DNA of 64,000 bases, from IMG/VR virus record IMGVR_UViG_3300011187_000002; one strand, given 5' to 3'. The translations under genes were made by a program, and so were the position numbers. How positions within the stretch are numbered: the stretch's first letter is position 1; the number at the start of each line of letters is the position of its first letter. Shown here piece after piece: positions 4,587 through 62,369 of the stretch. The notes beneath the pieces are model-generated. The model was not told the origin of the DNA. It searched no databases and was given only the letters and a program-made list of their open reading frames with translations. This DNA comes from a virus. Taxonomy: Duplodnaviria > Heunggongvirae > Uroviricota > Caudoviricetes.

Positions 4587-5147
4587 TTACAGGCTCATGT
4601 CGCCGGTAATGGCGGAAGGTAGGGAGGCGGTTCCAGCGGCCACACGGTGGATGATGCGGTATTTCACGTTCTGGTCCACATAGGATTTCCACGAATCGGC
4701 TGCAGGGTCATGGATGTTCCCTAGACGGACCGCACGCTCCGAATATTCGTCTTTGCCGATCCACCCGATCACAGTCTGGAGAGTATGCCCCACCTCGGGA
4801 AAACCCTCGACGTCCTTAGCGCCTGCGGTACGAAGAACCTCGTAACGCCCGGCCTCTAAGGGAAAGCCAATGTAGACAAGACGGGTGTGATCTTCTCCGG
4901 TCGCCGTGCGCAACCGAAGCTCTAGTGCGACGGAAGGTACGTCGACGTGGTTATCTATGGCAGGATCATACTCATCTTGCCATGCCCCAACGCCCGGCCA
5001 ATCCCTCAGCCACACCTCCGACACGACCGTGCAGGGCTTAGGTAGCACCTGTGCCGGTGCGTAATCATCGTCGGATGCGGTCTTACTTCGGGAAACAGAC
5101 CGGTGCATGTAGCGGTGTGCTACGATCTTGGCGAGTTTTAGGGACAT
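4587..5147 (-). CDS. hypothetical protein
   Basis: 186-aa ORF. Confidence 0.5.
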   Translation of the reverse strand: MSLKLAKIVAHRYMHRSVSRSKTASDDDYAPAQVLPKPCTVVSEVWLRDWPGVGAWQDEYDPAIDNHVDVPSVALELRLRTATGEDHTRLVYIGFPLEAGRYEVLRTAGAKDVEGFPEVGHTLQTVIGWIGKDEYSERAVRLGNIHDPAADSWKSYVDQNVKYRIIHRVAAGTASLPSAITGDMSL

Positions 5148-5180
5148 AGTAACCTCCTAAACCCGTTTAATACAAAGGGA

Positions 5181-8285: not shown

Positions 8286-8807
8286 TTAAACGCGGATTTC
8301 TTGCTCCTCGGGGATTTCGAAATTCTCTAACGCCACGTCACCGCTGTTGAGATCGAGGAAAACTTTGCGCTGGTCTTCGAGTTCTTCGGTGAACTCTTCC
8401 AGTTGGTCCAAAGATCGTTGCCAATCAAATGTCGCTTCGGAAGAAATCAGATACAACCGGCTCAAGAACTCTTCCATCGAATGGCGGATTTTCCTTTCCA
8501 ATCGTTGGTGGTGCTCGGCATGGTCTGCCACCCCCACAAGCTCGGAGGCTTCCGCCTGCATCTCCCTAAGCTCTTGGAGCCGTTCGTAGGCCACAAGGGT
8601 CATGTCGAGGAAAGTCTCACAGTTCGCCAAAAGGCGTTTCGCCCGGTCTTTTTGGCTACTGTCTATGCCCTTGAGAATGAGCTTACGCATCTTGCGAAAG
8701 CGCCTCTTGAGACTCCGGTCCAACCGGTTACGCCACCTGCGGATAAGCGTAAAGGTGCCGTAGATAATCAGTCCTACGAACAATAAGAACAGGATGGGTC
8801 GTATCAT
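8286..8807 (-). CDS. membrane-anchored coiled-coil protein
   Basis: 173 aa; N-terminal TM helix ILFLLFVGLIIYGTFTLI then basic and coiled-coil region. Confidence 0.5.
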   Translation of the reverse strand: MIRPILFLLFVGLIIYGTFTLIRRWRNRLDRSLKRRFRKMRKLILKGIDSSQKDRAKRLLANCETFLDMTLVAYERLQELREMQAEASELVGVADHAEHHQRLERKIRHSMEEFLSRLYLISSEATFDWQRSLDQLEEFTEELEDQRKVFLDLNSGDVALENFEIPEEQEIRV

Positions 8808-10862: not shown

Positions 10863-11437
10863 TCCAAAAACTTGACGATTTCGGGTTCCGGGCCTTTTGC
10901 TCTTTCAGATTCAGCATAGCCCGGATCATCATACCCCATATAGTCTTCGGCCAATCCGAACACACGATAATTGATTGACTCTTGCCAATCTGTAATCGGC
11001 GTTACGGTCGTCACGACGTCCATGTAGTCAGTCGCAATCTCGGCGGCCCCTACGACGTTGTAAACGGGCCTCTGATACTTGAACGCAACGCCACCGAAAT
11101 ACAGACCATCATAGTTAGCGCGGGCGTCACGGATCATAGTCGCATGTGGCTGCTCTTTCGAACGCTCGTCGATACCGCCGTTGTCGGTCCAGATACCGTC
11201 CACGCTTTTGAAAAAGCCGAACGCCTGCTTGGGATGTAGGTCAAGCGAATTGATCCCTAGCCACAGATCGGGGGCAAAATCCTGCACCGCCTTTACGACA
11301 CGTTGCAAATGCTGCCAATCCTTATCGTGGTTCACAAGAAACACGCCGTCAGCTTCGGCTTTTAGAACAATGTCCACGTTACGCAACACTTGGCGCGTTT
11401 CAGAAACGTGGATTACAGGCAATACTTTACAAGTCAT
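10838..11437 (-). CDS. hypothetical protein
   Basis: 199-aa ORF. Confidence 0.5.
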   Translation of the reverse strand: MTCKVLPVIHVSETRQVLRNVDIVLKAEADGVFLVNHDKDWQHLQRVVKAVQDFAPDLWLGINSLDLHPKQAFGFFKSVDGIWTDNGGIDERSKEQPHATMIRDARANYDGLYFGGVAFKYQRPVYNVVGAAEIATDYMDVVTTVTPITDWQESINYRVFGLAEDYMGYDDPGYAESERAKGPEPEIVKFLDWAVEQYG

Positions 11438-12173: not shown

Positions 12174-12843
12174 TCATTTCACCAGCCAGCCCTTTAGGCT
12201 TGCGGCCATACTGTTCGGCTTGTTCGGTGAATTTCTCAGTCAGTAAAGCAGCGAATGCTCGGAGGCCGCCGAAATGGTTAATCATTTCCCGCTCGCCACG
12301 GTTGAAATCCTCATCCAGATCAAACTTCCAGCCTTGCTTTTCAAAGACATCGCAAATCATCGGTTCATCCCCCGGCTCCAGAATCTTGAGCGGCAATTCT
12401 TCCGGGTGATTTAGGTAACGGTCCTGCATCCTGCCGATCTTTGCGGCCATCGGAATGGAAGGGTTATCCCAGATGCGCCGACAGATAACTTCCCAGCCCC
12501 CCTCAAGTTCTCGGCGTGAGGCTTTGGCGGCTTCGAGGGATTGCTTGGCCTGTTCCAGATTTTCTTGGGCTTGGGCAGCCTCTTTCGACTTAACACCCCG
12601 GACCATTTCGCTGAAGGCAATCAGTTGATCGAGGTCGAAGCCATATTGCTCTTCGGCCACACCGGCGACAGCACCGATCACATCCGCAAGCTCTATCAGA
12701 ACCAGTAAGTCGAGGCCCCGGATATCGGCGTCAACGGCCTCATCCAGTTCCTCTTGAATCTTCGACAGTTCGCCGTAGACCCCTTTGGTGACTCGGACGT
12801 CGTGGTAGGGCGATTTTTTCGTTTTGTTGTCACGCATTTTCAA
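12109..12843 (-). CDS. MazG/HisE-like all-alpha NTP pyrophosphohydrolase domain protein
   Basis: 244 aa; N-terminal ELSKIQEELDEAVDADIRGLDLLVLIELADVIGAVAGVAEEQYGFDLDQLIAF resembles MazG/HisE EExxE...DxxE core. Confidence 0.4.
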   Translation of the reverse strand: MKMRDNKTKKSPYHDVRVTKGVYGELSKIQEELDEAVDADIRGLDLLVLIELADVIGAVAGVAEEQYGFDLDQLIAFSEMVRGVKSKEAAQAQENLEQAKQSLEAAKASRRELEGGWEVICRRIWDNPSIPMAAKIGRMQDRYLNHPEELPLKILEPGDEPMICDVFEKQGWKFDLDEDFNRGEREMINHFGGLRAFAALLTEKFTEQAEQYGRKPKGLAGEMIGENGKSSGPVFNPKQYGTDE

Positions 12844-13084
12844 CCCCGGTCAAGTAAAGCATCACACGCAATTTACTATCGACGCTGTAATACATGAACT
12901 TACGACGCTTAATAGTACCCCTAACCATACTAAAATCTTCGCCCCGTCCCCCTACAACCACTTCTTCCGACACATTCGGTACGGGAACAGGGTGCGAAAA
13001 TTCGTGAAATTCGAATGGGTGATCTGACCCGGCTGTATCCTCATCATCGTAAAATTCAATGTCCATCGAATAGTTATCCGGCAT
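12830..13084 (-). CDS. hypothetical acidic protein
   Basis: 84-aa ORF. Confidence 0.4.
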   Translation of the reverse strand: MPDNYSMDIEFYDDEDTAGSDHPFEFHEFSHPVPVPNVSEEVVVGGRGEDFSMVRGTIKRRKFMYYSVDSKLRVMLYLTGVENA

Positions 13085-13154
13085 TTCTGTCCCTTTCTGT
13101 TGGATTCATTATCGCTTGATAATGCTTATTGTAAATGTCCCCAAAGGCCCGATC

Positions 13155-13370
13155 TCACTCGTAAGTGCCTTCCTCGTAAACAAGAGTGAGATCTCTTGCT
13201 TCGTTTGCAACTTCCGTGATCACTTGCCTTAATTTAGGAGTAAAATTCTTTAGTAAAAGTGCAGAGTACCCCGAAACCACTATTGGGTGTTGTGGGGGTT
13301 CTTTTTCATACTTTCTCCGAGCGGCTTTGATTAAAGTCTTCGGATGTATGGCGGGCTTATATTCAGACAT
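13155..13370 (-). CDS. hypothetical protein
   Basis: ORF-track start runs into tRNA; internal ATG (MSEYKPAIH...) at 13370 chosen. Confidence 0.4.
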   Translation of the reverse strand: MSEYKPAIHPKTLIKAARRKYEKEPPQHPIVVSGYSALLLKNFTPKLRQVITEVANEARDLTLVYEEGTYE

Positions 13371-13391
13371 GCCGTAACTCCAGTATTCAAG

Positions 13392-13468
13392 TACCCCCGG
13401 TGGGACTCGAACCCACAACTAACCGGCATTTTAAGTGCCGTGCCTCATTCCATTTGGGCCACGGGGGC
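13392..13468 (-). tRNA. tRNA with anticodon UAA (nominally Leu) but class-I-sized variable loop
   Basis: GCCCCCG/CGGGGGU acceptor, GG in D-loop, anticodon stem CGGCA/UGCCG with loop CUUAAAA, 7-nt variable loop, T-arm GUGGG-UUCGAGU-CCCAC, discriminator A; no CCA encoded. Confidence 0.65.
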
Positions 13469-13937
13469 TTAATTTTGATCTTTTAACGTCGTGTACGACG
13501 GGTCTATTGTTTCCACATCCAAAGGATCCATGCGACCATTTTGGACCTCTGCACCATACTTCCCGGCGCAGGCCCGGACCTAGATCAATACAATGGAGGA
13601 TGTAAGCTGCAGCCGTAGACCGGCTGATACCCGCTTCACAATGACAATAGACGTACTCAGCCTCTAGGAGCGTATCAGACGCATCGAGAAGCCTTTGGAT
13701 ATCGTCATCGGTTGGCGCTTGGTACCCGGCCAAAGAAGCCGTGGAGACGGCCCACGGGGACGTCACGTCGTCAAAGCAAAAGAACTCGTGGCGCGGGTTA
13801 TCCTCTTCGAAGATAGCCCACAGTGGTTCGGAAGGTGGGGAAACAAACTCCACCAGAGCATAGTCCGTACCGGCCTCTTTCATTCGGGGGAGATCACGGA
13901 GTGCCCTGAAAACGTTGAATGTAAGGATCTTTTTCAT
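13431..13937 (-). CDS. protein tyrosine/dual-specificity phosphatase-like protein
   Basis: CX5R P-loop HCEAGISRS; start placed at internal ATG (MKKILTF...) to avoid tRNA-Leu(CAA); 3' end overlaps the UAA tRNA. Confidence 0.5.
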   Translation of the reverse strand: MKKILTFNVFRALRDLPRMKEAGTDYALVEFVSPPSEPLWAIFEEDNPRHEFFCFDDVTSPWAVSTASLAGYQAPTDDDIQRLLDASDTLLEAEYVYCHCEAGISRSTAAAYILHCIDLGPGLRREVWCRGPKWSHGSFGCGNNRPVVHDVKRSKLSPRGPNGMRHGT

Positions 13938-13948
13938 AGGGGATAAGT

Positions 13949-14031
13949 GCCGAAGGTGGGAGTCGAACCCACACGACCCGAAGGCCACCTGATTTTGAAT
14001 CAGGCAAGTCTACCAATTCCATCACTTCGGC
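13949..14031 (-). tRNA. tRNA-Leu(CAA)
   Basis: 83 nt; acceptor GCCGAAG/CUUCGGC, anticodon loop UUCAAAA, long variable arm, T-loop UUCGACU, discriminator A; no CCA. Confidence 0.8.
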
Positions 14032-14038
14032 TTAAAAG

Positions 14039-14299
14039 CTATTCTTTGGTCAAGGCTGCGAGTTCCTCTTCCAATTGGGCCTCTGCGGAAAGATCAACAA
14101 GTTCCGCGCCGTTCTCATCGAATAACACGTACTTGTCGAAATCTTGGTTCGTCGAGCGTGCCCGGCGAAACCAGTGCTTAGACCCGTCAGTAAGTACGAT
14201 CAAGATAGGTAAATCCCCTTTGATTCGGGGTGCTTTACGCAGCGCTTCCCTACCTACGGGGTCACGCATTATCTTGTTTTTCAGATCGTCCATACTCAC
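14039..14299 (-). CDS. hypothetical protein
   Basis: 86-aa ORF between two tRNAs. Confidence 0.45.
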   Translation of the reverse strand: MSMDDLKNKIMRDPVGREALRKAPRIKGDLPILIVLTDGSKHWFRRARSTNQDFDKYVLFDENGAELVDLSAEAQLEEELAALTKE

Positions 14300-14303
14300 C
14301 TCA

Positions 14304-14377
14304 AGCCCACGGACGGATTCGAACCGCCGACCAGCTACTTACAAGGTAGCCGCTCTGCCAGACTGAGCTACGTGGGC
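14304..14377 (-). tRNA. tRNA-Thr(UGU)
   Basis: 74 nt; GCCCACG acceptor, D-arm GCUCAGUCUGGCAGAGC, anticodon loop CUUGUAA, T-loop UUCGAAU. Confidence 0.8.
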
Positions 14378-14420
14378 GTGCTTTGGGGACAACAACAGAA
14401 TACCTGTTGCTCATTCCCGA

Positions 14421-14672
14421 CTATATGACCGATATCCAATTACCAGTCATGACGTCAAGCATCAAAAGGACTTTCTCATCCCCTTCCGGCGCTTGATATT
14501 CGAAAATCTCGTACCCCAACTTACTGCGCTCAGTACGTAAACACGTATAGCCTGTAAGGTCAAGGAGGGATTGCAAAGTTACAGCCTTGGAGACTTCGAC
14601 CTCATCTATCGAACCGCCCGCTTCTTCTACGTACTCTGTAGCGAATTCAAGCAAGTCGTCCATAGCCGTCAT
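14421..14672 (-). CDS. hypothetical protein
   Basis: 83-aa ORF. Confidence 0.45.
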   Translation of the reverse strand: MTAMDDLLEFATEYVEEAGGSIDEVEVSKAVTLQSLLDLTGYTCLRTERSKLGYEIFEYQAPEGDEKVLLMLDVMTGNWISVI

Positions 14673-15073
14673 AGCATTTCCTGTAAATCTTCGGCACCGA
14701 TAAGTATCGCCGATAGTACCATGAGGAAGTCACCCCATGCAACCACCCACCAGTTTTCAACCAGATAGGAAAATGTCGACAGGGAAGGGTAATCATACCG
14801 GTGCGCCATCAACAGGACAAACACCATGATGAATATCAAGAAGCCGACGCATCGAGCGATATGAAAAATAAGGGTTTTCATTGATCGCCCCGCCAAAAGG
14901 CATAAACAAGGGCGATCAGCATCACCAACACCATGACAGCTAAGAAAAAGACCATGATGCTTACAACAGTAAACGCCATTGGCTCCAGAGCACTGTAGCC
15001 AGTATCGGAGGCTTCGATCTGCTTGAAAGGTAAAAGGGGCATCATGCGTGCAACTCTGCGAGGACCTCATCAA
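14669..15073 (-). CDS. hypothetical membrane protein
   Basis: 134 aa with hydrophobic helix FHIARCVGFLIFIMVFVLLMA. Confidence 0.45.
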   Translation of the reverse strand: MMRSSQSCTHDAPFTFQADRSLRYWLQCSGANGVYCCKHHGLFLSCHGVGDADRPCLCLLAGRSMKTLIFHIARCVGFLIFIMVFVLLMAHRYDYPSLSTFSYLVENWWVVAWGDFLMVLSAILIGAEDLQEML

Positions 15074-15278
15074 CCGACAGGGGTGCCGGGTAAGAATCCC
15101 CGTCTGTTACTGAATCTTGTATCGCGCAAAAAACAACTTCTTCGATCGCCGCATACGCCTGCTCGACTGTAAGTCCATCTGCGGACAACAGAGGGAACTC
15201 CAGACAAAAGCCAATGAAATAGCCCTCGTCCTCATCATGCTTGATCACATAGGTGTAGCGACTTGCTTCAGTAGTCAT
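15042..15278 (-). CDS. HicB-like (UPF0150) domain protein
   Basis: YTYVIKHDEDEGYFIGFCLEFPLLSADGLTVEQAYAAIEEVV matches Y..VIE.DE.GGY.A.VPELPG...G.T.EEA pattern; internal start chosen; no HicA partner nearby. Confidence 0.4.
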   Translation of the reverse strand: MTTEASRYTYVIKHDEDEGYFIGFCLEFPLLSADGLTVEQAYAAIEEVVFCAIQDSVTDGDSYPAPLSVDEVLAELHA

Positions 15279-15522
15279 TAGGGTCAATCTCGACAAAACC
15301 CAGCGGCCCGGTGAACTCGTAAGTTTCTTCGAAGATCTCAGCATCACAGACGTAAAGTTCACCCTTAACGCCCCGCATCAAAAAATCACCGGCCTTGCCC
15401 GTCATAGTGCCCTCCATCGTCACGACACTGAAAGGCTCGTTGATCTTCTTGGCGTGGGCCGGGGCCTTTTTCTTGCACTTTTTCAGACCTTCGACCTTTT
15501 CGTACTCTGCGAACTTCAACAT
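15268..15522 (-). CDS. hypothetical protein
   Basis: 84-aa ORF. Confidence 0.45.
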   Translation of the reverse strand: MLKFAEYEKVEGLKKCKKKAPAHAKKINEPFSVVTMEGTMTGKAGDFLMRGVKGELYVCDAEIFEETYEFTGPLGFVEIDPNDY

Positions 15523-15822
15523 TCAAAATGCCCGGTTAGTCTGAACTTGGTTTATGACCACATCCGTTTCGGTGTACAGGTAAGACGTTGCGAATTCGAT
15601 GATTTCCATCACTCGCCAATCTTCGGTTCGGATAGGCCGGAAAATAACGACCTCATCGCTCCCATACTTAGCGGTACCCTCAACAAAAAGATTCTGGTTG
15701 CCGATGGTGTAAATACCACGAGGCAAATTGTCCAGATCAATAGGTATGGTCTTGGGCTTGACAGGAACCACACGTTGCTCTGGTCCGTTGCCTAAGCCCA
15801 AGATCCGCTTGAAAAACGACAT
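15523..15822 (-). CDS. hypothetical protein
   Basis: 99-aa ORF. Confidence 0.45.
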   Translation of the reverse strand: MSFFKRILGLGNGPEQRVVPVKPKTIPIDLDNLPRGIYTIGNQNLFVEGTAKYGSDEVVIFRPIRTEDWRVMEIIEFATSYLYTETDVVINQVQTNRAF

Positions 15823-15836
15823 ACTGTCTCCTAAAG

Positions 15837-15924
15837 GGTGCCTGACGGGACTTGAACCCGCAGTAAAACCGCAGTAAAACCGCAGTCACAGTGCGGCGCG
15901 TCTACCAATTCCGCCACAGGCACC
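15837..15924 (-). tRNA. tRNA-His(GUG) with encoded G-1 and an 11-nt tandem duplication in the variable region
   Basis: 8-bp acceptor GGUGCCUG/CAGGCACC (G-1:C73), anticodon stem CCGCA/UGCGG with loop CUGUGAC; between the anticodon stem and T-arm there is UGCGGUUUUAC x2 (plus-strand ccgcagtaaaa x2 at 15861-15882), about 14 nt longer than a normal tRNA-His. Confidence 0.6.
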
Positions 15925-15959
15925 ATACATCTTGATACTATCAGATACGTATCGCTACG

Positions 15960-16193
15960 TCAATACGCAAATTGCGGCTCGATATCGTAAGCCTTGCAAA
16001 TAGCCGCAAACAACCCTTTCGACCCCCGGATGTAACCCATCAAGCCGGGACATGCCTTGTAGGCTTCCAAGAGCTTTGCATCCGGCGTGTCGTCAAGGGC
16101 ATTGTTGTATTTTACGAACTGATCATGCACCCGCTGTACTTCTTCTTTCGTCATCATAATGTTCCTAGTTAGGGTAAACAGCGACGAACCCAT
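15960..16193 (-). CDS. hypothetical protein
   Basis: 77-aa ORF. Confidence 0.45.
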   Translation of the reverse strand: MGSSLFTLTRNIMMTKEEVQRVHDQFVKYNNALDDTPDAKLLEAYKACPGLMGYIRGSKGLFAAICKAYDIEPQFAY

Positions 16194-16471
16194 TTAACCG
16201 GGTCGTCCTCGTGTTCGGGAACCTCTTTTGTCTCTTCGGCCCACGCATGGGGGCTTCGATTCGACATACTAGATAAAGCCGTGGCCTTATCAAAATCTTC
16301 CAACAGGGCGCGTAGCAAGATGTAACACCGGGGGCCTAGAAACTTCTTGCTGGGATACTTCGACGCCCGGACAGGGATCACAGCACCCGCGTCGTTTTCA
16401 AGCAACACACCAAGGGGGAATTCCACGCCCTCGAAATGGCTCGGGGTAAACAGAATCCGGCAATACCTCAC
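16169..16471 (-). CDS. hypothetical protein
   Basis: 100-aa ORF. Confidence 0.45.
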   Translation of the reverse strand: MRYCRILFTPSHFEGVEFPLGVLLENDAGAVIPVRASKYPSKKFLGPRCYILLRALLEDFDKATALSSMSNRSPHAWAEETKEVPEHEDDPVKWVRRCLP

Positions 16472-16671
16472 GTCAAGCTCCGCATGGCCGCAATAGCTTT
16501 GTTCTGACGATCACGGCGTTTGCGTGCCCTTTCAAGGCGGCTCTGCCGGGACTTTTCGCTGGCCCTACGCACAGACTCCTTACCCTTATCGGACTGGAGC
16601 CATTCGTTGATCTTACGGACTTGTTCGTCGGCTTCGGCCTGTTCTTCTTCGGTCAATTCGAGATCACTCAT
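16468..16671 (-). CDS. hypothetical basic protein
   Basis: start placed at second ATG (MSDLELTEEE...) forming ATGAGTGA overlap with upstream small ORF. Confidence 0.4.
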   Translation of the reverse strand: MSDLELTEEEQAEADEQVRKINEWLQSDKGKESVRRASEKSRQSRLERARKRRDRQNKAIAAMRSLT

Positions 16672-16810
16672 TTTCGACCTTTCCCGGCTCCACATTCACG
16701 TAAATCTGATTGCAAGTCGCACATGAGATCCAATAAGGATACAGCGTTTTGGGAGGCTCAACACTCCCAAAGGGGCGATCACAGTCGGGACACACTTTCT
16801 CAGAGGACAT
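16664..16810 (-). CDS. small zinc-ribbon protein (48 aa)
   Basis: ORF MSSEKVCPDCDRPFGSVEPPKTLYPYWISCATCNQIYVNVEPGKVENE (CPxC...CxxC), below ORF-track size cutoff; sits between tRNA-Thr(CGU) and next gene. Confidence 0.4.
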   Translation of the reverse strand: MSSEKVCPDCDRPFGSVEPPKTLYPYWISCATCNQIYVNVEPGKVENE

Positions 16811-16826
16811 AATTGCCTACCCTAAA

Positions 16827-16899
16827 AGCCCGGAGCCGGATTCGAACCGGCGACCTTTTCGTTACGAATGAAATGCTCTGCCAACTGAGCTATCCGGGC
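16827..16899 (-). tRNA. tRNA-Thr(CGU)
   Basis: 73 nt; GCCCGGA acceptor, D-arm GCUCAGUUGGCAGAGC, anticodon loop UUCGUAA, T-loop UUCGAAU. Confidence 0.8.
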
Positions 16900-17441
16900 G
16901 TATACGACGTGAATTCCTGTGGGCTTTCTAACCGAACCTTCAAAACGATACGGCGGGGATACCCCTGCCCGTTCAAAGATTCAGTAGCGATCAACCCTTT
17001 GTGGGTGAGGCGGGTCAAGCAAGCTGAGGCCGCGCCCCTCGTCACCGGGTCAAAGTTCGTGCTGGCAGCCCGCATCAACTCCTTGGTTGATACTACTACG
17101 GACCACCGGCCCTGTTCATCACGCTTAGACATAACCTGCAAGGTCGCTAGGATATGCCGCTCACGTTCCGGTAATTCTGAGGCCGCTAGGAACGTGTCTC
17201 CGTCCACCGCATAGGTTTCGGGGGTGCTATACCGTGCGTGATTGTCCGTCGCCTCTAAGTCGCTTCTGAGGGCTTCTAGCTCTTGCTGGAAATCTTCGAC
17301 AAGAACTTCACGCTCAAGGAGTTCGGCTTCCCGACGTTCAAGGTCGGATGCGCATGTCTCAAGGGCTTCGAACATCTCGTCCACTACGGACGCCAGTTGA
17401 GCCTTGAATTTACGCTTCAGGTCTTGAACGTCGGAAGCCAT
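16890..17441 (-). CDS. coiled-coil plus C-terminal winged-helix-like protein (paralog A)
   Basis: 183 aa; C-terminal ...LTRLTHKGLIATESLNGQGYPRRIVLKVRLESPQEF alignable with downstream paralog; last 10 nt overlap tRNA-Thr(CGU). Confidence 0.5.
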   Translation of the reverse strand: MASDVQDLKRKFKAQLASVVDEMFEALETCASDLERREAELLEREVLVEDFQQELEALRSDLEATDNHARYSTPETYAVDGDTFLAASELPERERHILATLQVMSKRDEQGRWSVVVSTKELMRAASTNFDPVTRGAASACLTRLTHKGLIATESLNGQGYPRRIVLKVRLESPQEFTSYTPG

Positions 17442-17453
17442 GCGGTCCTCGAT

Positions 17454-18192
17454 TCAGGCGGAATTGCGGGCGCTTTCGATGAACTGTTCCGGGTTGCGAA
17501 GCCGGTAATTCAACACGACCTCACGACGCCTTTTGCCGTCAATGACGACCTTGTTGCTCGCAAGCACACCCTCTTTGTTGAGGGTACAGATGACGCTGGT
17601 GATGGTCCCTTCGGGGATCGTATAGTCCATCATCCGGTGCAACTCACGGTTGGTCAGGTCGCAGACCCCGTGGGTCTTGTTCTCATCGCAATAGTTCTGG
17701 ATGAAAGCGTAGACCTGACGCTCACGAGGACAGAGATCGTCGCCTTCGATGAACTTGGCCTTGCTTTCTTTCGAAAACAATTGACCCGAACGGGCGTCGT
17801 CGAGGACCACGACACGTGAACCTTCGGCATCTTCGGGCGCAACCAGACCGCGCACCTGTTCGTCGAAGTCCCGGAATGACGACCGGAAATCGCTGTACGT
17901 GGCTTGAAAGTCACGCACGTTGGACTCGTGCTGGTCGAGCTTCTTTTCGAGCTGCCCAGCCATGCGCTGAAGAGCATCTTCGCGTGCCACAAGGCTCTTT
18001 TCCCGACGATCGAGATTGCTTTCCTTTTGGGACAATTCGTTTGCACGCTTGTCCAAATGGCCCTTGCGACGGTCGAGGCTCCGCTCACGTTCCTCCAACG
18101 GGGCGAACACGTCGTCGGCACCGTCGTTGAGGAACTCCATGAACCGCTGCTGAATGTTCGTGAACATCGACTCTTGTTTCTGTGACGACATC
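17454..18192 (-). CDS. coiled-coil plus C-terminal winged-helix-like protein (paralog B)
   Basis: start chosen at ATG (MSSQKQES...) with AAGAGAGG Shine-Dalgarno; C-terminal ...TSVICTLNKEGVLASNKVVIDGKRRREVVLNYRLRNPEQF matches paralog A; ORF-track N-extension would overlap tRNA-Arg. Confidence 0.5.
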
Positions 18193-18255
18193 TGTACCTC
18201 TCTTGTAGTCATAAGTATCGTAAGGGTTCGTCGTCTCACCGCTAGATAGCGGTAG

Positions 18256-18330
18256 CACGCCCGGCAGGATTCGAACCTGCGACCCGGAGGGTAGAAACCT
18301 CCTGCTCTGTCCTGACTGAGCCACGGGCGC
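18256..18330 (-). tRNA. tRNA-Arg(UCU)
   Basis: 75 nt; GCGCCCG acceptor, D-arm GCUCAGUCAGGACAGAGC, anticodon loop UUUCUAC, T-loop UUCGAAU. Confidence 0.8.
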
Positions 18331-41427: not shown

Positions 41428-43407
41428 CTAGGATTTTACGCGGCAAGTCACTGGAGCGTTGGTATCGTGGCTAGGGCAATGCTGGTACGAATTCTCTTGG
41501 GCTTTATCACACACACCACAGCCATCTCCTTGGTATTGTCCATTCTGGTAATCTACCAGATCGGGGTGGTTCCCTTGGATATCAATAATGTACTGACTGG
41601 CGGCATTCGCACCCTGCACCGTCAATGAACTGGAAAACGCTCCGCCCAACGAAACAAGATCCGGGTTTTGTTGAATATACATTACGCCACCCACGGACGT
41701 GACGGACTGAAAACCAGACACCGTGTAAAAATCCGTAAAAATGATTTGTAAATCCCCACCAACCGTAAGGAGTGCGTTGAAAGCATCCATTGTCAAGGGG
41801 TTAGTGGTGTTAGCCTCTTTGGCCCCATCGCGGATAAACATGTCACCACCAATAGTGGTCAAAGAGGGAAAGCCCACAAAATCAACAGCATCGCCTTGGT
41901 TAGTGACGAGATCCGTGACCACGAAATTATCCATTTCAAAATTACTCGTGACGGTTTCCAAATCCGCAAAAGCCACTTCGTTATTGACGTATTCAAAACG
42001 TGCCTTATTTCCCGTGCTATTGTTGAGGTCCAGACGAAAAGTCCCCAGAATCTCGCGCAACGTGTGGACTTCAAACAGTTGGGTAGCGGTTCCGGTGATG
42101 GTTACATTACCGTCTACCGAACAATACCCGGAAAGGGTAATCAAGTCTGAGTTTGTGTTTGCTGTGAAATCCCCCACGTACTGTTCACAGGGATTCAGGC
42201 ACGGGGCACCCCCGATGCACGTGTATCCAGTAGCAACAGCACAGGATGCCGTACAACCCGGCCCTCCATCACATTCTTCGCCTTCATTAACGTCGAGGTT
42301 GCCGTTACCGCAAGTCGCCCCGGTTTCCGTCACCACTTGGGTACACGAATCACACCAAGTGCAAGTCTGTCCATATCCGGGGACACATACGTCGCCCGTG
42401 CTCGCACCCTCGTCACAAACCTCTGCCGAATCCACGATACCGTCGCCGCAAACGTTTAGCTCCCGGCAACTGAACCCGTCGCCTGTGAAGCCGCTATCGC
42501 AAGCACATGAAAATGATCCGTAAGTGTTTGTGCATGTTGCGTTTGAATCGCAAACCGCTGTGCCGTTGGCGCACTCGTTGTTATCTACGCAAGCGTAAGT
42601 ATCGTTGTCTGTGTTAGGGTCGAGATCTTGGCAGGTGGTTCCCGTTTGGCAATTGGCGGACCCGTTGCTGCACTCATCCACGTTGGCGCAAGTGAAAGCC
42701 TGTTCCCCATTAAGAGGATCACCGTCTATACATTCGGTTCCAGCGCTGCAGGAATCCGTACCGTCAACACACTCATCCACGTTCAAACACTCATATCCGC
42801 CCAGCGTGTTGTTGCATTCGGTACCGTTTCCACAAACGTTGGGGTCGTCGCATTCGTTCACATCCTCACAGGTACCAGCCACATCCGCATAGCCCGCGTC
42901 ACAGGTACAGTCGTAATCGCCTTCGGTATCGGCACAAGTTGCGTTGGGACCACAAACATTGGGGTCGTTGCACTCGTCGATATTGGCGCACGCACCATTG
43001 ACCACCTCGTACCCCGGATCACAATCAATCTCAGGGGTGTCCGTTTCTACCTCGTCTCCCGTATCACCACCATCGTCTCCCGTATCGGTACTGGTGTCCT
43101 CCGCATCCATGCCGGTGTCGGTGTCCGTGTCCGTACCCGAATCTGTACCGATGTCTTGCTCTCCGGTATCGGTATCCGAACCCGCATCTTCACCCGTATC
43201 CAAACCGGTTTCCTGATCGGTGCCACTGTCCGTATCAGGAACAATTCCCGTGTCGCTGTCCACCCGAACTTCTTCAGTGTAAGTGTCCGTACCAGCATCA
43301 GGGCTGGTTACGGTGTCCGTGGTTACGGGATAGGTCGGAACCTCTTCGGTACAACCAAAGGCCGTCAAGACCAGAACAAGTAAGGCTAATGTCGTGTAGT
43401 GTCGCAT
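41428..43407 (-). CDS. secreted lipoprotein with D/T-rich acidic region and calcium-binding-EGF-like cysteine modules
   Basis: signal plus lipobox LLVLVLTAFGC; low-complexity TDTD/DTGT region; at least 5 modules of form (N/D)(I/V)(D/N)EC...C...C.N..G.Y.C.C (NIDECNDPNVCGPNATC...GDYDCTCDAGY; DVNECDDPNVCGNGTECNNTLGGYECL; etc.). Confidence 0.6.
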   Translation of the reverse strand: MRHYTTLALLVLVLTAFGCTEEVPTYPVTTDTVTSPDAGTDTYTEEVRVDSDTGIVPDTDSGTDQETGLDTGEDAGSDTDTGEQDIGTDSGTDTDTDTGMDAEDTSTDTGDDGGDTGDEVETDTPEIDCDPGYEVVNGACANIDECNDPNVCGPNATCADTEGDYDCTCDAGYADVAGTCEDVNECDDPNVCGNGTECNNTLGGYECLNVDECVDGTDSCSAGTECIDGDPLNGEQAFTCANVDECSNGSANCQTGTTCQDLDPNTDNDTYACVDNNECANGTAVCDSNATCTNTYGSFSCACDSGFTGDGFSCRELNVCGDGIVDSAEVCDEGASTGDVCVPGYGQTCTWCDSCTQVVTETGATCGNGNLDVNEGEECDGGPGCTASCAVATGYTCIGGAPCLNPCEQYVGDFTANTNSDLITLSGYCSVDGNVTITGTATQLFEVHTLREILGTFRLDLNNSTGNKARFEYVNNEVAFADLETVTSNFEMDNFVVTDLVTNQGDAVDFVGFPSLTTIGGDMFIRDGAKEANTTNPLTMDAFNALLTVGGDLQIIFTDFYTVSGFQSVTSVGGVMYIQQNPDLVSLGGAFSSSLTVQGANAASQYIIDIQGNHPDLVDYQNGQYQGDGCGVCDKAQENSYQHCPSHDTNAPVTCRVKS

Positions 43408-50811: not shown

Positions 50812-53800
50812 TTACAGTGAGTTCGCGCTTCCGATCGTGTACGTGATCGGGATGTACTTCAAGGGGAAGATCGGTGCGTAAAAAGCACTGACTCGAAGTA
50901 CGGTCGGATCGTTAGGATCCGGCTCGGCACGAACACCCTTGAAGTCTACAATGATCTGCTGCTCCATAAGGGTGTTAAGTAGTCCCGAAAGGGCCAACTC
51001 TACATCCTGCGCCCGGCTGGTGAGGAACTTCAAACCGATGAAACGGTCCAAGCTCTTGCGTGCCTGTTGCTGGACGTGATCCTTAATAGCGACAATCGAA
51101 GGCGTTGACGTGAACCGGTTGGTAACGTCGGTGGTTAGACCGTCACGTACCTGTAGGAACGATCCTCGATCTTCGAGGACTGTAACACCACCGACAGCAA
51201 GCTGGTTCTTTTCGATCTCATCAAGCGATCGGTTAAGGCGTCTGAAACCGACAAGGCGACGTCGTGTTAACGGGGTTGCAACATCGAACTGCGGACTTAC
51301 CAGAACACCGGCAAGTGCCGCCGCTACATACGTTCCGTCGACGATGAAACTCTCATCTTCCCCAAGCTCGTTCGTCAGTGTGACGATTGCGCTATCGGGG
51401 TATACGAGAATCGACCGTCCGCTCTTGAGGCTCTTCGCGATGTTAGCCGCGTCTTCAGGACGAGTGCCCGAAGCAACACCGAAGATGCACCGGCGTTCCT
51501 GACGGAAACGCTGGCTCGACTGGATCTCGGAGTGGTTAACATAGGCACCCATAACATCCGGGTCCGTCGTAAGAGGGACCAAAAGATCAGGGGTAATGCC
51601 CGAAGCCAGCGGCTTTTTAAGCTCTTCCAAAGCGTCCATGAACGCCGCTGTAGGAGCTTGACTGAAGCCGGGGGTCTTTAGTACCTGCTTGCACCCGACG
51701 ATGACCGCACCGTTCAACACAGCGAGGTATGACGCCAAAGTAAGCGGGTTCTCAGCGGACAGCTTGCCGTAATTGCGCTGAATGTCCCGGAACCGAGTGA
51801 ACAGACGGGTTGAGAAATCCGTCTTTTCGTATTCGTAAGAGATATAGTAGAAATCTCCGATTCCCGGCTCGGCACCTGACTTGTTGTAAGTCGTTACTAC
51901 CGCCGTATCACCTACTCCGATATCCGTCGTGTTGTCCACCCGAACTTCAGTGCCCGGAACGGCCTTGACGACTTTGCTGAATCCCGTAGTGAAAGTATCC
52001 GACACATTCAGTGTGAAAGACTGTCCGTCCGTATAATCGCCGGTACCAGCCTCCAAAATCGTGAACCGAAGTCCCGTGTTGGAATCCTGATACGTTTGAC
52101 CAACCACACCTTCGCCGGTTGAGCCGTTGGTAGCCGAAGAGGCCACATCGAACCCATCCCGTGCATCTGTTCCCGCAACCGAATCACCGGCTTCGATCCC
52201 AATGCCCGTATCGTTAAGTGCCGAATCCGTTCCGGTACCAAACGTGAAGGATGCTGTGGAACCTTCCGCGAATGTAGTCAAGCGGAGGTAAGTCCCTTCG
52301 CCCGGCTTTACAAACGTATCAGCAAAGGCCGATGCAATGTACTCGGTAGCAGCCGTTGGGCTGTACCAATCCGAGGCTTGACTGTTCAGAACAGCAGCGA
52401 TCTCGTGGGCTTCAACACGTCGTTGCGAGGCACTATCACCTTCGCTGAATCCAACGTACTGGTTAGCTGTTCCGGCACGAACCTCAATGCGACTCTGGTT
52501 CGTGTCCAAGTTGGAAGTGATGCGGATCTTGTCCGTATCTTCTACGGCCACCGTGGCATCTGTGAGGGCTGCATCCAAAGCGGTCTGGATTGCGCTTACC
52601 GAGGCTAGGCTCGATAGATCCACCGTATGCTCAGTGCCATTTACCGCTACAACAAAGTCTGCGGTAGAAGCGCTATTAAGGGAAGCAAGGTCTGAGGCCG
52701 AGATCGCACCACTAAGAAGCGTAGCTCCTTTGTTAACAGCTTTCTCGGTGCCCTCGGCATACTGGAAGTCAGTGAAACCGAGAGTCCCGTTAGCGTTGCC
52801 GTCCTGCACCCTGATATGGGATGCATCTGCAGGTCCCGAAGGAGACACTTTCGATCGAAGGAGGAAACGCTCATCATCAGCACCCGAATCCCGGTAGCTC
52901 GCTACCAGAATGTTCTCATGCGAATCACCGTTGGTGAAACCAAGGACCGGGTTGGCTGTGCCTGTACCAATCGTAAGGCTTTCAGAAGCCAAGAGTTGGA
53001 CTTTACCCGAACCATCATCAACCGCATGTCCGTCGTTGCCAACAACTGCCGGATCACCTACCGTAAGATTTGCGTTGGTGATCTCGGTGTTAATCAACGT
53101 AGCTAATTGTGCAGCCGTTTGACCTGTCAATGTTCCAAAATCAACATTAACGGGGGTACCGTTCATGTCAAAATCGAAAAGATCATCGGACGCATCGGTG
53201 AATGCAAAGCTCTCCGTTGATGTACCAGTAATAGTAGCATCAGTCGGTACCGACCGCCAGATATCTTCGGCAATGTCAGCACCTGTTCGGCCCAACCCTG
53301 CTGTAAGAGTGACGCTATAGTCCGTACCGTCTACTTCAAACTCAAATACGTCGTTTTCGGTAGCAACGATGTCGTAAGTCGAACCATCGTCATGTCCGTC
53401 AGAAACGGTCACACCGAAAGCAGACTGGTTAAGGTCTACCGTTAGGCTGTTACCGTCTACATCCACATACAAGGTGTCAGACGCATCCGCATAGAGCGAA
53501 TACGGGTCAGCCGCGTAATTCGTGAATACAGCAGGCTCGGCCCCGATCTCTTTGAACGTCACCGTCACGGTTTCGTCCACACCATCAGCGCCCGCAATGA
53601 ATGCGTCCGGGTTAGTTTCCACACCGGAAGGCCACTGGATCGTTTCGTTAACTCCGGTGGTACCGAAATCAACCCCGAAAAGCTGCTCGCCTCTGCGGGA
53701 ACTGTAAACGCTATACTGGCCGGGTGTCGTAGCCGTCGACTGGCTCAAGACTTCGAAGGTTAGTTCATCATCCTGAAGCTGGTTGTACCAATACGTTGCC

Positions 53801-55365
53801 CACACCGTGTGACTCGGCGGAATAGCATCTTCAACCGTCACTTTACGGGTTTCAGGATCAACGTCCACAACCCCTACCGGGCCATTAGCCATCGCCTCGG
53901 ATAGATTGTCTCCGTGGTATACTTTAACAAGATCGGCCCGGTGCGTGCTCACGCCTACCCGGCTGTTCGATACATTGCCAAAGAGCTTCGAGTCTAGAGA
54001 CGTGCTCCGTCCGTTACCCGTCGTAGGTACATTACCTAGTAGGACAGTCGTGTCGGAGGTCACAGCCGGGCTGACCGAACGATCTACAAATCGGCTGGTC
54101 TCTTCGAAATACATCCGGTTATCAACCAGCGATGCACTGATCTGAGTCTCGTCGAAAAACTCCGTGCCTGCCGTATGCAGGCCAGATTCGATCGTTGCCG
54201 CCGAACCCCAGAGAAGTCGACCGTTCTCGTCAACTACGTAATCGTTACCCTCGATATAATCGGTGCGTCCGGGGCTGATACCAACCTGTTGGACTTTCCG
54301 AATTCCCGTATTGGGGAGGTAATCGAAAGTGTCTTGCCACGTGTTGTGGAAATACTCAACGGAAACGACGGCCCCTACAATCGGAGCCTGCTTGAGCGTG
54401 ACCGCTCCGTTAGTTCCATCAACCTCTTCGGGCACTACTTGGTTGCCGTCTACCTTGACCACAACATCGGAAGGATCCGTCGTGATGATCCCGCCGTTAT
54501 CGCCCGTAACAATCGGAGCCTGATAGACGTAAAAGGTACGGTTGCGCGTGGTTTTTTGACCAGCACCAAAACCAAGAACCGAGTTAGCTGTTCCCGAAAG
54601 GATCTCAATCGACCCTTGGGCTTCCAACTGAATTCGGTTATTGCCTTCGTTGTCCGCAGCTACACTGGCGGTAAGACCTACAATGCCCGCAGCGTTAATG
54701 TCGTTGACCACATTGTTGGCGCTCTGAGTCGCACCTGTCGTGAGGGTCACACTTGCGTCTGCACCGTCCACGTTGAGATTCAGGACGTTAGCCCCGGATA
54801 GAATCTCATAGTCTTCGACTTGCGACGAAAGGAGGATTGCGGACTCTTCAGCCACCTGACCCGAAAGGTCATCGGTGAACTTCGTGTCGGTACGGTTGAA
54901 GAAATACGTAACACGCACATCTTCACCGGTCTGTGGCGGCACTTGCAAGGTGATAACACCCCGCGCACCGTCTACAGCAGCAGGCGACACGAGATCGCCA
55001 TCTACGGTTACTGTGATATCGGAAGTATCACTCGTCACTAACCCTTGCCCATTACCCGATACAATCGGATAATTCTGGACACGAAACTTGACTTCACTGC
55101 CAGTCTTCGCACCCAAAACAGGGTTATCAGGGTTAGCATTGTCGAGGATGAACCTGTCGTTCACGTCCTCATTGACAATACGTTGATCTACCGATGCCGA
55201 AGAACCACGCACCAGCTCAAAGTCGTCTTGGGATAGAGTCTCCCGACCGACACCAATAAGAACCGGAATCCGGTTCCCCGTTGGAGGGCCTGACGAACCT
55301 TGCTGAGTTTGTGTTTTTGTGTATACTCCGGGTGGAGCGTAACTATCGAATGGTCCAAATGCCAC
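50812..55365 (-). CDS. tail sheath-like structural protein with multiple inserted repeat domains
   Basis: ORF-track GTG start trimmed to second GTG with TGAGG Shine-Dalgarno; N-terminal MAFGPFDSYAPPGVYTKTQ resembles sheath ...PGVY..E start; C-terminal ...VLRVSAFYAPIFPLKYIPITYTIGS; about 60-aa repeats (VTLT.G...A..I...IN...... GTAN.VLGF) recur at least 5 times. Confidence 0.5.
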   Translation of the reverse strand: MAFGPFDSYAPPGVYTKTQTQQGSSGPPTGNRIPVLIGVGRETLSQDDFELVRGSSASVDQRIVNEDVNDRFILDNANPDNPVLGAKTGSEVKFRVQNYPIVSGNGQGLVTSDTSDITVTVDGDLVSPAAVDGARGVITLQVPPQTGEDVRVTYFFNRTDTKFTDDLSGQVAEESAILLSSQVEDYEILSGANVLNLNVDGADASVTLTTGATQSANNVVNDINAAGIVGLTASVAADNEGNNRIQLEAQGSIEILSGTANSVLGFGAGQKTTRNRTFYVYQAPIVTGDNGGIITTDPSDVVVKVDGNQVVPEEVDGTNGAVTLKQAPIVGAVVSVEYFHNTWQDTFDYLPNTGIRKVQQVGISPGRTDYIEGNDYVVDENGRLLWGSAATIESGLHTAGTEFFDETQISASLVDNRMYFEETSRFVDRSVSPAVTSDTTVLLGNVPTTGNGRSTSLDSKLFGNVSNSRVGVSTHRADLVKVYHGDNLSEAMANGPVGVVDVDPETRKVTVEDAIPPSHTVWATYWYNQLQDDELTFEVLSQSTATTPGQYSVYSSRRGEQLFGVDFGTTGVNETIQWPSGVETNPDAFIAGADGVDETVTVTFKEIGAEPAVFTNYAADPYSLYADASDTLYVDVDGNSLTVDLNQSAFGVTVSDGHDDGSTYDIVATENDVFEFEVDGTDYSVTLTAGLGRTGADIAEDIWRSVPTDATITGTSTESFAFTDASDDLFDFDMNGTPVNVDFGTLTGQTAAQLATLINTEITNANLTVGDPAVVGNDGHAVDDGSGKVQLLASESLTIGTGTANPVLGFTNGDSHENILVASYRDSGADDERFLLRSKVSPSGPADASHIRVQDGNANGTLGFTDFQYAEGTEKAVNKGATLLSGAISASDLASLNSASTADFVVAVNGTEHTVDLSSLASVSAIQTALDAALTDATVAVEDTDKIRITSNLDTNQSRIEVRAGTANQYVGFSEGDSASQRRVEAHEIAAVLNSQASDWYSPTAATEYIASAFADTFVKPGEGTYLRLTTFAEGSTASFTFGTGTDSALNDTGIGIEAGDSVAGTDARDGFDVASSATNGSTGEGVVGQTYQDSNTGLRFTILEAGTGDYTDGQSFTLNVSDTFTTGFSKVVKAVPGTEVRVDNTTDIGVGDTAVVTTYNKSGAEPGIGDFYYISYEYEKTDFSTRLFTRFRDIQRNYGKLSAENPLTLASYLAVLNGAVIVGCKQVLKTPGFSQAPTAAFMDALEELKKPLASGITPDLLVPLTTDPDVMGAYVNHSEIQSSQRFRQERRCIFGVASGTRPEDAANIAKSLKSGRSILVYPDSAIVTLTNELGEDESFIVDGTYVAAALAGVLVSPQFDVATPLTRRRLVGFRRLNRSLDEIEKNQLAVGGVTVLEDRGSFLQVRDGLTTDVTNRFTSTPSIVAIKDHVQQQARKSLDRFIGLKFLTSRAQDVELALSGLLNTLMEQQIIVDFKGVRAEPDPNDPTVLRVSAFYAPIFPLKYIPITYTIGSANSL

Positions 55366-55437
55366 GACGAACCTCACTTATCGCTTAAATGATATGCGAT
55401 CAACCACTGAAGGCAAATATCAATAAAATACCGGGCG

Positions 55438-60935: not shown

Positions 60936-62369
60936 TCACCGCTTGCGATACAGAACCTTGACTGCTTCGGTAAGGTTCCGAGGGCTTTTCCGCAGGCCCG
61001 GCTGCCGAAGCAAAACGTCGCGAGCCACTTCCATGAGGTTGCGGATTTCCCGGCCTTGGAGGTCAAATTCACCAATCAACGCTTGGGTATCCATCTGGCG
61101 GCCCGGCTGTTTCAGGAGGTCAACGAACTTGTCCGCCTCCCGTGCTTCCATCTCTAGGGCAACCGTGCGCAACCGGGCCATCTGAGCGTCGTCTAGGAAA
61201 CGAAGCCGTGTGTTCAACGGGAGGCCGATATCCATCATGTCGAAAAGGAACAGGACCTTCGCATCCCGACCCGCCCAATTCACAAGGGTTTTACGGAAAG
61301 GCTTATTGCTTTCGAGCATCTCTTTGACCACATCGAGCAGGCCCAGATTCTTGAGCACTTTCAGGGTGGTCTTCGACTGGCTCATCTGTAAAATGTCATT
61401 GACGAGGATCTCGCTAATGGCATTTTGCGGGGCCTTCTTGAGCTTATCAGCGTTTCGACGAATAGCCTTGGCGACAGGTGGATCAATCTTGAAGCCGTAC
61501 TTGACCAAGAACTTCACCGCCCGCAACATCCGGGTGGGGTCATCCGAAAATGTCTTGTCCGGGTCGCTAGGACACTTCATAACGCCTTCTTGAAGGTCAT
61601 CCACGCCACAACCCGTGAGGTCAATAATCTCTGCCTTATCCGGCCCGTGAGCAAGCTCTGAGAGCTGCCACAGCAACGTATTGAACGTGAACTCACGCCG
61701 TTTGATATCCTCTTCGATAGTCGAAGGCTCTACCATGTGTGGCTTGTATCCTTTCCCCTCGTCACCGCCGTAGGACTCTTTGCGGGCATTGGCGATTTCG
61801 ATAACTTCGCCTTGGAGGTCCGCGCCGTCCACTACCCACGATTCATTGACGGACAGGATAGCTACGCCGTACTGATTCGTCTGGAGGCTGGTCTTAGCCG
61901 GAATCGCCCCCTGTAACTTCTTGGCGAACCATGCCGAGTCCTTTCCCCCAAGCGCTACCGAATCTATCACGACGTCGATATCTTTGATGGGCCGGTCGAT
62001 GATGAAATTGCGCACAGCACCGCCTACTACATATACGTGTTCCCCAACCCCTAGCCGCTTGGCGACTTTGGATAGAAACCGCATCAGGGCGATCGACTGT
62101 TCATGTGCTTGTTCGGAAATCACGGTACGTCTCGAAGCTAAACGGGTCTGTTCCCGGTAAAAGAACGACCCATCACGGAACGTTAAATCACCCATGTTAA
62201 CGAGGGATTCGATAATATCCCCCATCAGGTCAGGTGCATCGGTCATAGCTTCTACCAAATCATCATATTGGTTGAAAGCCTGTTCCATAACATTCGATGC
62301 GGTACGATTACGTCCCGAGGCTAGAGATAGGAGGTAGCGTCGTGCGACCTTTTTAGATAGATCAATCAT
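60936..62369 (-). CDS. class II tRNA nucleotidyltransferase (CCA-adding enzyme / poly(A) polymerase family)
   Basis: 477 aa; motif A VYVVGGAVRNFIIDRPIKDIDVVI, motif B DIKRREFTFNTL. Confidence 0.7.
   Translation of the reverse strand: MIDLSKKVARRYLLSLASGRNRTASNVMEQAFNQYDDLVEAMTDAPDLMGDIIESLVNMGDLTFRDGSFFYREQTRLASRRTVISEQAHEQSIALMRFLSKVAKRLGVGEHVYVVGGAVRNFIIDRPIKDIDVVIDSVALGGKDSAWFAKKLQGAIPAKTSLQTNQYGVAILSVNESWVVDGADLQGEVIEIANARKESYGGDEGKGYKPHMVEPSTIEEDIKRREFTFNTLLWQLSELAHGPDKAEIIDLTGCGVDDLQEGVMKCPSDPDKTFSDDPTRMLRAVKFLVKYGFKIDPPVAKAIRRNADKLKKAPQNAISEILVNDILQMSQSKTTLKVLKNLGLLDVVKEMLESNKPFRKTLVNWAGRDAKVLFLFDMMDIGLPLNTRLRFLDDAQMARLRTVALEMEAREADKFVDLLKQPGRQMDTQALIGEFDLQGREIRNLMEVARDVLLRQPGLRKSPRNLTEAVKVLYRKR

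Follow-up and report, generated by a model that had tools for sequence, protein, structure and literature searches.

An 11-nt tandem duplication forms an apparently very young minor allele of a tRNA-His gene in a huge phage

A tRNA-His(GUG) gene was examined in a stretch of phage DNA of 64,000 nucleotides (IMG/VR record IMGVR_UViG_3300011187_000002), hereafter called the window. The gene contains a perfect 11-nt tandem repeat and has one repeat unit more than its counterpart in most members of the same phage population. Judged from sequence comparison, the repeat is a very young minor allele, absent from a related phage; as a gene, the locus is an ordinary phage tRNA-His. Our preferred interpretation, which we hold with a probability of about 0.8, is that the extra unit arose by a slippage duplication and is a transient polymorphism, neutral to deleterious, rather than an adaptation.

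The gene content of the window is that of a huge tailed phage, with genes for GroEL, a tRNA nucleotidyltransferase and a homologue of the tail sheath; genes neighbouring the tRNA are found on contigs of between 0.2 and 1 Mb. Huge phages that carry clusters of tRNAs and genes for translation have been described before (Al-Shayeb et al. 2020, PMC7162821). The relevant features are the following:

13391-18330, minus strand: cluster of tRNA genes (Leu-UAA, Leu-CAA, Thr-UGU, His-GUG, Thr-CGU, Arg-UCU) with small ORFs, called by ARAGORN and Rfam and syntenic with the cluster of the related phage (contig L013)
15523-15822, minus strand: 99-aa ORF that starts 14 nt after C73 of the tRNA, with AGGAG between the tRNA and its ATG
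15837-15924, minus strand: tRNA-His(GUG), 88-nt allele, from G-1 (15924) to the discriminator C73 (15837), found by ARAGORN, Rfam RF00005 and sequence reading
15887-15889, minus strand: anticodon GUG (CAC on the plus strand), found by sequence reading and ARAGORN
15935-15963, minus strand: sigma-70-like match TTGACG-17 nt-(TG)TAGTAT, a consensus match only, ending 10 nt upstream of G-1
60936-62369, minus strand: tRNA nucleotidyltransferase (CCA-adding enzyme; Pfam PolyA_pol 1.2e-15 and PolyA_pol_RNAbd; phrog_2244 4.9e-31)

The sigma-70-like match is one of six such sites in the region, where 4.3 are expected in shuffled sequence; the number is thus not above chance. Coding on the plus strand was discarded as an account of the locus, as only trivial ORFs overlap it. 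No homologues of the 99-aa protein were found outside this phage population, the only match being a fragment of itself; hence it offered no route to divergent relatives, and the Lon protease gave one. The ORF upstream of the tRNA is on record in a 65-aa form and not as an extended 77-aa form.

Other genes of the window deserve mention on their own account. The tail-sheath homologue is a 1521-aa protein (50812-55377, minus strand) whose C-terminal ~350 residues match phrog_2839 (1.4e-31), with no match for the N-terminal part. A 757-aa protein (58216-60489, minus strand) matches Pfam Volactin, an archaeal actin-like family, at 1.2e-70 in two stretches, interrupted by an intein splicing domain that contains a LAGLIDADG endonuclease; it is thus an actin-like protein with an intein, encoded by a huge phage. 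Calcium-binding EGF domains (Pfam EGF_CA 5.8e-15), unusual in a phage, are found in a 659-aa protein (41428-43407, minus strand). Beyond the window, contigs of the same phage (L028 and L029) encode peptide deformylase and a stand-alone DALR_1 domain, the anticodon-binding domain of ArgRS.

The identity of the tRNA gene is clear. ARAGORN calls tRNA-His(gtg) on the minus strand at 15836-15923, a frame one base off because the program does not model G-1. The Rfam RF00005 match covers 15837-15923 at full length (model positions 1-71) with 54.7 bits, against a gathering score of 29, and treats 14 surplus bases as inserted in the variable region. Sequence reading locates G-1 at 15924, G1 at 15923, GUG at 15889-15887 and C73 at 15837, exactly the 88 nt that an earlier note, made from the sequence alone, had assigned to a tRNA-His(GUG) at 15837-15924. 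From 15924 to 15837, the minus strand reads:

G-1 GUGCCUG UG GCGG AAUUGGUAG ACGC G CCGCA CUGUGAC UGCGG UUUUACUGCGGUUUUACU GCGGG UUCAAGU CCCGU CAGGCAC C73

The acceptor stem (GGUGCCUG/CAGGCACC) has 8 bp including G-1:C73, with 15924 opposite 15837, and the 7-nt anticodon loop CUGUGAC, with GUG centred, is closed by CCGCA/UGCGG. Both elements are as the earlier note had described them, G-1:C73 pair included, and the same pair is present in the short allele, in L013 and in the metagenome contig L010. The 88-nt gene also has G18G19 in the D-loop, the T-loop UUCAAGU, and anticodon and T stems of 5 bp each. CCA is not encoded (the bases after C73 are C, U, U), which makes the CCA-adding enzyme of the phage relevant.

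In bacteria, the His identity set is made of G-1, C73 and G34 U35 G36, and in the complex of Thermus thermophilus HisRS with its tRNA the contacts of the enzyme are limited to the acceptor end and the anticodon (PMC9976931). The variable region is the least conserved element of a tRNA, with 4-5 nt in class I and at least 10 nt in class II (PMC7609411). The window gene has every sequence feature of the bacterial-type tRNA-His family except one, the length of its variable loop, which is 18 nt instead of the 4-5 nt of class I.

The additional length belongs to the tandem array:

15858-15886, minus strand: perfect 11-nt tandem array (Tandem Repeats Finder: period 11, 2.6 copies, 100% match, score 58)
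15858-15868, minus strand: 11-nt unit by which the gene exceeds the majority 77-nt allele, seen as a single 11-nt alignment gap

The array, 29 nt in all, runs through the 3' strand of the anticodon stem and the variable region and reaches into the T-stem. Its unit is CCGCAGTAAAA on the plus strand, with UGCGGUUUUAC repeated in the RNA, and the resulting RNA string is UGCGG-UUUUAC-UGCGG-UUUUAC-UGCGGG. Sequence reading and Tandem Repeats Finder agree with the earlier note on this string and on the 18-nt variable region; the array stands as it was reported, and only the position of the full units, given as 15861-15882, is corrected to 15858-15879, a trivial register slip. The register of the extra unit is itself arbitrary, as all 11-nt frames within 15858-15886 are equivalent. 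At an offset of 11, chance would produce an exact 18-nt self-match about 1e-6 times in 64 kb (64000 x 4^-18). Elsewhere in the window, no occurrences of the unit were found beyond chance-level matches with one mismatch. An iteron or operator, conceivable for a period of 11 nt (about one helical turn), was ruled out because the unit is not dispersed in the window.

Contigs from other public assemblies were retrieved through the exact products of the ORFs that flank the tRNA, and two alleles were found. The 77-nt allele, with one unit fewer (UGCGG UUUUAC UGCGGG) and a 7-nt variable loop, is present in 10 contigs from 10 samples (L001, L002, L003, L004, L005, L007, L008, L016, L018 and L023). This majority gene, at 9911-9987 in L001, has the loop UUUUACU, itself atypical. 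The 88-nt allele is carried only by the window and by the JGI contig Ga0136556_1029649 (L009, identical to L011), two of the 12 contigs. On identical flanks, the repeat is therefore found in 1.6 copies in 10 contigs and in 2.6 copies in 2. A third copy-number state, with 3.6 copies, was not detected by pattern scans that allowed up to 31 nt between the arms.

Other searches contributed less. A scan of metagenome contigs returned two loci and missed JGI contigs that carry the short allele, so that it is unusable for allele frequencies. Neither the tRNA pattern nor the 99-aa neighbour gave a match in searches of viral contigs, and the contigs returned by a look-up via the Band_7 protein end short of the tRNA.

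Alignment to the window showed how little else separates the two alleles. Contigs L002, L005, L007, L008, L016, L018, L022 and L023 differ from the window by 0 mismatches and one 11-nt gap; the zero-mismatch alignments of short-allele contigs are 1.2-11 kb long. In L001, L003 and L004, 8-9 mismatches were counted over about 11-12 kb. The near absence of mismatches with short-allele contigs indicates that the duplication is younger than essentially all other variation in the population.

A second polymorphism lies nearby. A segment of ~358 bp with a tRNA-Thr(GGU), corresponding to window position ~16511-16520, is carried by L002 (8956-9313), L009 (~80-440) and L019 but is missing in the window and in L001. 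In the alignments the segment is flanked by a ~10-bp overlap, and it alters the neighbouring small ORFs, which encode 64 and 90 aa instead of 67 aa. All four combinations of this indel and the tRNA-His alleles were found, which implies either that the duplication moved between backgrounds by recombination or that it arose more than once. The presence of the 88-nt allele on two backgrounds means that it persisted until recombination or that it recurs; hence, it is not instantly purged.

Further insertions occur in the same region. Contig L001 has two, of ~1.1-1.2 kb (12251-13372 and 15940-17159), which are not in the window (~13572 and ~11006-11019); one of them brings a gene for an HNH_3 endonuclease to a position immediately upstream of tRNA-Leu(UAA). 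Mobile endonuclease genes thus appear to move within the tRNA cluster.

One assembly, ERZ27315558, breaks inside the tRNA-His gene: contig L019 ends at window position 15898, and L024 and L006 start at 15864. Such a break is what alleles coexisting in a sample would cause, an interpretation that is only suggestive. It also has a bearing on a more trivial explanation, namely that the extra unit is an artefact of assembly, a possibility already raised in the earlier note, or of sequencing. Assemblers can miscount tandem repeats, and here one assembly was indeed fragmented at the repeat. However, an array of 29 nt is far below both the length of short reads and the k = 141 of the contig ids, so that reads span it, and Ga0136556_1029649 is an independent contig that has the other state of the neighbouring indel and the same 88-nt allele. 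We regard an artefact as having an almost negligible probability.

The duplication is real, and its most likely origin lies in the 77-nt gene. In the short allele, TGCGG occurs twice, 6 nt apart: once in the 3' strand of the anticodon stem and once in the 5' strand of the T-stem (U-GCGGG). The genes of L010 and L012 likewise have two copies of TGCGG, 4 nt apart. A pentamer shared by coincidence between the anticodon stem and the T-stem would thus provide direct repeats, and replication slippage between them, or an equivalent misalignment mediated by microhomology, would have duplicated the 11-nt unit in the lineage of the window and extended the variable region from 7 to 18 nt. Slipped-strand mispairing between the pentamers predicts exactly the 11-nt tandem duplication that is observed. 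We infer slippage from this agreement, and the earlier suggestion of a slippage-generated repeat is strongly supported by the finding of near-identical genomes that differ by one 11-nt unit flanked by 5-nt direct repeats. The footprint of a transposon, with an 11-bp target duplication left after excision, was also considered and discarded: it is unneeded given the 5-nt flanking microhomology, and no mobile-element remnant was found.

More distant relatives were then compared. The contig L013/L014 (IMGVR_UViG_3300028410_000013) belongs to a related huge phage whose Lon protease is 76% identical. Its syntenic cluster contains Arg-UCU, Thr-GGU, His-GUG, Thr-UGU, Leu-CAA and Leu-UAA, and its tRNA-His, of 75 nt, has an identical anticodon arm and a 5-nt variable loop, UUCUA. 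Seven further tRNA-His genes with the same 17-nt anticodon arm, found in viral contigs, are 73-76 nt long. Comparison with related phages, as proposed in the earlier note, thus yielded tRNA-His genes of 73-76 nt, and among the relatives compared the array is not shared as a conserved long arm. No relative emerged when GenBank phages were searched by DNA similarity, the matches being confined to generic tRNA-Thr sequence.

Both the anticodon arm and the core of the T-arm are exactly shared by two other genes, which have 5-nt loops and encode CCA. One is in L010, a 275-kb metagenome contig (Ga0315336_1000164), where a near-identical gene at 8556-8633 is preceded by similar upstream sequence. The other is in L012, the Chloroflexi MAG Casp150-chloro-G5 (5083-5160), the only one of 185,579 species genomes in which the identical combination was found. 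This match is a weak hint as to the source of the tRNA or the lineage of the host, too thin for a host call. Taken together, these relatives suggest that the loop went from 5 nt (ancestral) to 7 nt (the common allele) and then to 18 nt (the window).

When five tRNA-His genes were aligned, all 102 of the 102 cloverleaf cells contained standard pairs. Across these related genes, both partners have been replaced in four pairs, of which three belong to the acceptor stem and one to the T-stem; examples relative to L013 are G3-C70 to A3-U70 and C50-G64 to U50-A64. Controls with slid partners were 37-48% paired, in what is a small sample of five genes. Full pairing against such low controls indicates that the lineage is under structural constraint and is not a decaying relic.

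A different member of the cluster, tRNA-Leu(UAA) at 13391-13468 (minus strand), is also short: it has A73, a variable region of ~7 nt (GUUAGUU) and a class-I-like length of 77-78 nt. At the same place (15074-15157), L013 has a normal 84-nt class II tRNA-Leu(UAA) with a paired variable arm. The short form is present in all the contigs of the window's phage that were checked. Counting the 7-nt loop of tRNA-His, two of the six tRNAs of the cluster have atypical variable regions. In unrelated viral contigs, ARAGORN reported four-base anticodons (ctta twice, gtcg), one two-base anticodon and a tmRNA in L040 (loci: L033 3255-3330, L034 347-422, L038 888-973, L037 1225-1299, L040 8761-9037).

The effect of the extra unit on the tRNA was approached by folding. 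Nearest-neighbour folding is a poor judge of tRNAs, and it misses the T-arm of the short allele too; used comparatively only, it places the best structure that contains the cloverleaf 9.4 kcal/mol above the minimum-energy fold for the 88-nt allele, 4.0 above it for the 77-nt allele, 1.1 for the tRNA-His of L013 and no more than 2.9 for three further tRNAs in the window. The predicted probability of the anticodon-stem pairs is 0.00 in the 88-nt allele, 0.99 in the 77-nt allele and 0.63 in L013. In the minimum-energy fold of the long allele, CCGCA is predicted to pair with the third UGCGG, the T-arm is disrupted, and units 1 and 2 form a 9-bp helix that includes three G-U pairs. The competition between UGCGG copies anticipated in the earlier note is therefore reproduced in prediction, and when the alternatives are folded the misfold competes strongly in the 88-nt allele. 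If the cloverleaf is imposed, the 18-nt region can form nothing better than a 2-bp hairpin by internal pairing.

Other considerations temper this picture. All four stems, G18G19, the T-loop, the G-1:C73 pair and the anticodon are intact and identical to those of the short allele. The Rfam score is 56.2 bits for the short allele and 54.7 for the long one, a drop of 1.5 bits small enough to indicate that only the insertion is penalised. During transcription, the native anticodon hairpin would form before the extra copies are made. If it reached the cloverleaf, the 88-nt transcript would still be chargeable by HisRS, whose contacts are restricted to the acceptor end and the anticodon; extra length in a tRNA can be accommodated in the variable region. 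Engineered tRNAs with long V-arms and G-1:C73 can be charged by E. coli HisRS, and V-loop insertions in E. coli tRNAs are reported to leave marginal activity only (PMC7590224). Because the extra unit yields no arm of the class II type, and because a non-tRNA fold is predicted to be much more stable, the 88-nt allele is probably impaired, partly or wholly. Its effect is likely to be neutral to harmful; taken together, folding and rarity describe a transient, neutral-to-deleterious mutant of a working tRNA-His.

A stronger version of this conclusion is that the duplication inactivates the gene, producing a fresh tRNA-His pseudogene that is tolerated because the tRNA-His of the host, or another copy in the phage, suffices. 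The predicted misfold, with its wide energy gap, its lost anticodon stem and its disrupted T-arm, points in that direction, as do the marginal activity reported for E. coli tRNAs with V-loop insertions and the rarity of the allele. However, stems and identity elements are all undamaged, the loss in Rfam score is slight, and the same thermodynamic prediction errs for the T-arm of the short allele as well. We therefore view complete inactivation as possible, if tentative. It is a sub-case of the slippage reading, from which it differs in the size of the functional loss and not in the origin of the repeat. The term pseudo-tRNA used in the earlier note is not borne out insofar as stems and identity elements are intact, and a loss by misfolding could still apply.

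The opposite proposal is that the long form has been selected, either as a class-II-like tRNA-His that evades a nuclease or a modification enzyme, or as a decoy, or because the array is a contingency locus in which copy number acts as a switch. In its favour, stems and identity elements are intact, and the allele is found in two haplotype backgrounds; copy number varies in the population, the ERZ27315558 assembly breaks exactly at the repeat as if both alleles coexisted, and even the unduplicated allele is unusual in having a 7-nt loop. Against this, the 88-nt form is a minority allele (two of 12 contigs) on a background with zero other substitutions, hence very young, and it occurs in two copy-number states only, the scans having revealed no 3.6-copy form. 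In addition, the insert lacks the hairpin of real class II arms, the tRNA-His of the related phage and of other phages is class I, and both alleles have the same anticodon loop, which is what anti-phage tRNA nucleases usually target. Selection for the oddity is improbable in our opinion, and the earlier description of a deliberately odd, decoy or processing-resistant tRNA finds no support in a minority allele that has no structured arm and is absent from L013. Its specific functional forms, a switch in which slippage between the TGCGG pentamers repeatedly adds and removes the 18-nt variable region and so toggles between a working tRNA and a misfolded or nuclease-resistant one, or an 88-nt class II-like tRNA-His that is charged and used, we consider highly improbable. 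If functional, the 88-nt species would be the first case of a long variable region in a natural His tRNA, and either such a tRNA or a switch would be of interest to tRNA biologists and genetic-code engineers.

The interpretation that we favour, a recent slippage duplication that is neutral or harmful to the phage, has implications of its own. The two alleles are a natural pair in which the genome is otherwise identical and an 11-nt insertion in the variable region is the one difference; they could serve to measure the tolerance in vivo of a class I tRNA, and of HisRS, RNase P, EF-Tu and the ribosome, for added sequence that lacks structure. A tRNA gene whose anticodon stem and T-stem share microhomology by chance would be a hot spot for slippage. 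For annotation, the case is a warning that an over-long phage tRNA may be a strain-level mutation and not a new class of tRNA.

Comparison with known systems places the gene closest to class I bacterial tRNA-His, with which it shares GUG in a 7-nt loop, the 8-bp acceptor stem, G18G19, the T-loop UUCAAGU and the 5-bp stems. It departs from class I in its variable region, which has 18 nt in the window and 7 in the majority allele instead of 4-5, and in that CCA is unencoded. With class II tRNAs (Leu, Ser and Tyr in bacteria; Sec) it has in common a variable region of at least 10 nt. However, class II arms are base-paired stem-loops, whereas the 18-nt insert is copied stem sequence without a stable hairpin; the window gene has His identity, and its long region is not conserved in relatives. 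The lack of a variable-arm stem-loop and the different amino-acid identity together indicate that it is not a class II tRNA.

V-Spinach tRNAs and aptamer-tagged allo-tRNAs (PMC7590224) also carry extra sequence in the variable region. Those engineered inserts are designed hairpins, whereas the insert of the window lacks structure and is complementary to sequences elsewhere in the tRNA. Compared with phase-variable contingency repeats, the array described here is in an RNA gene and not in a coding or promoter tract, shows two states only (1.6 and 2.6 copies) and resembles them only in the variation of copy number. In form the array is like slipped-strand duplications, being perfect and head-to-tail: here, 5-nt TGCGG repeats are found at the bounds, and copy number varies between otherwise identical genomes.
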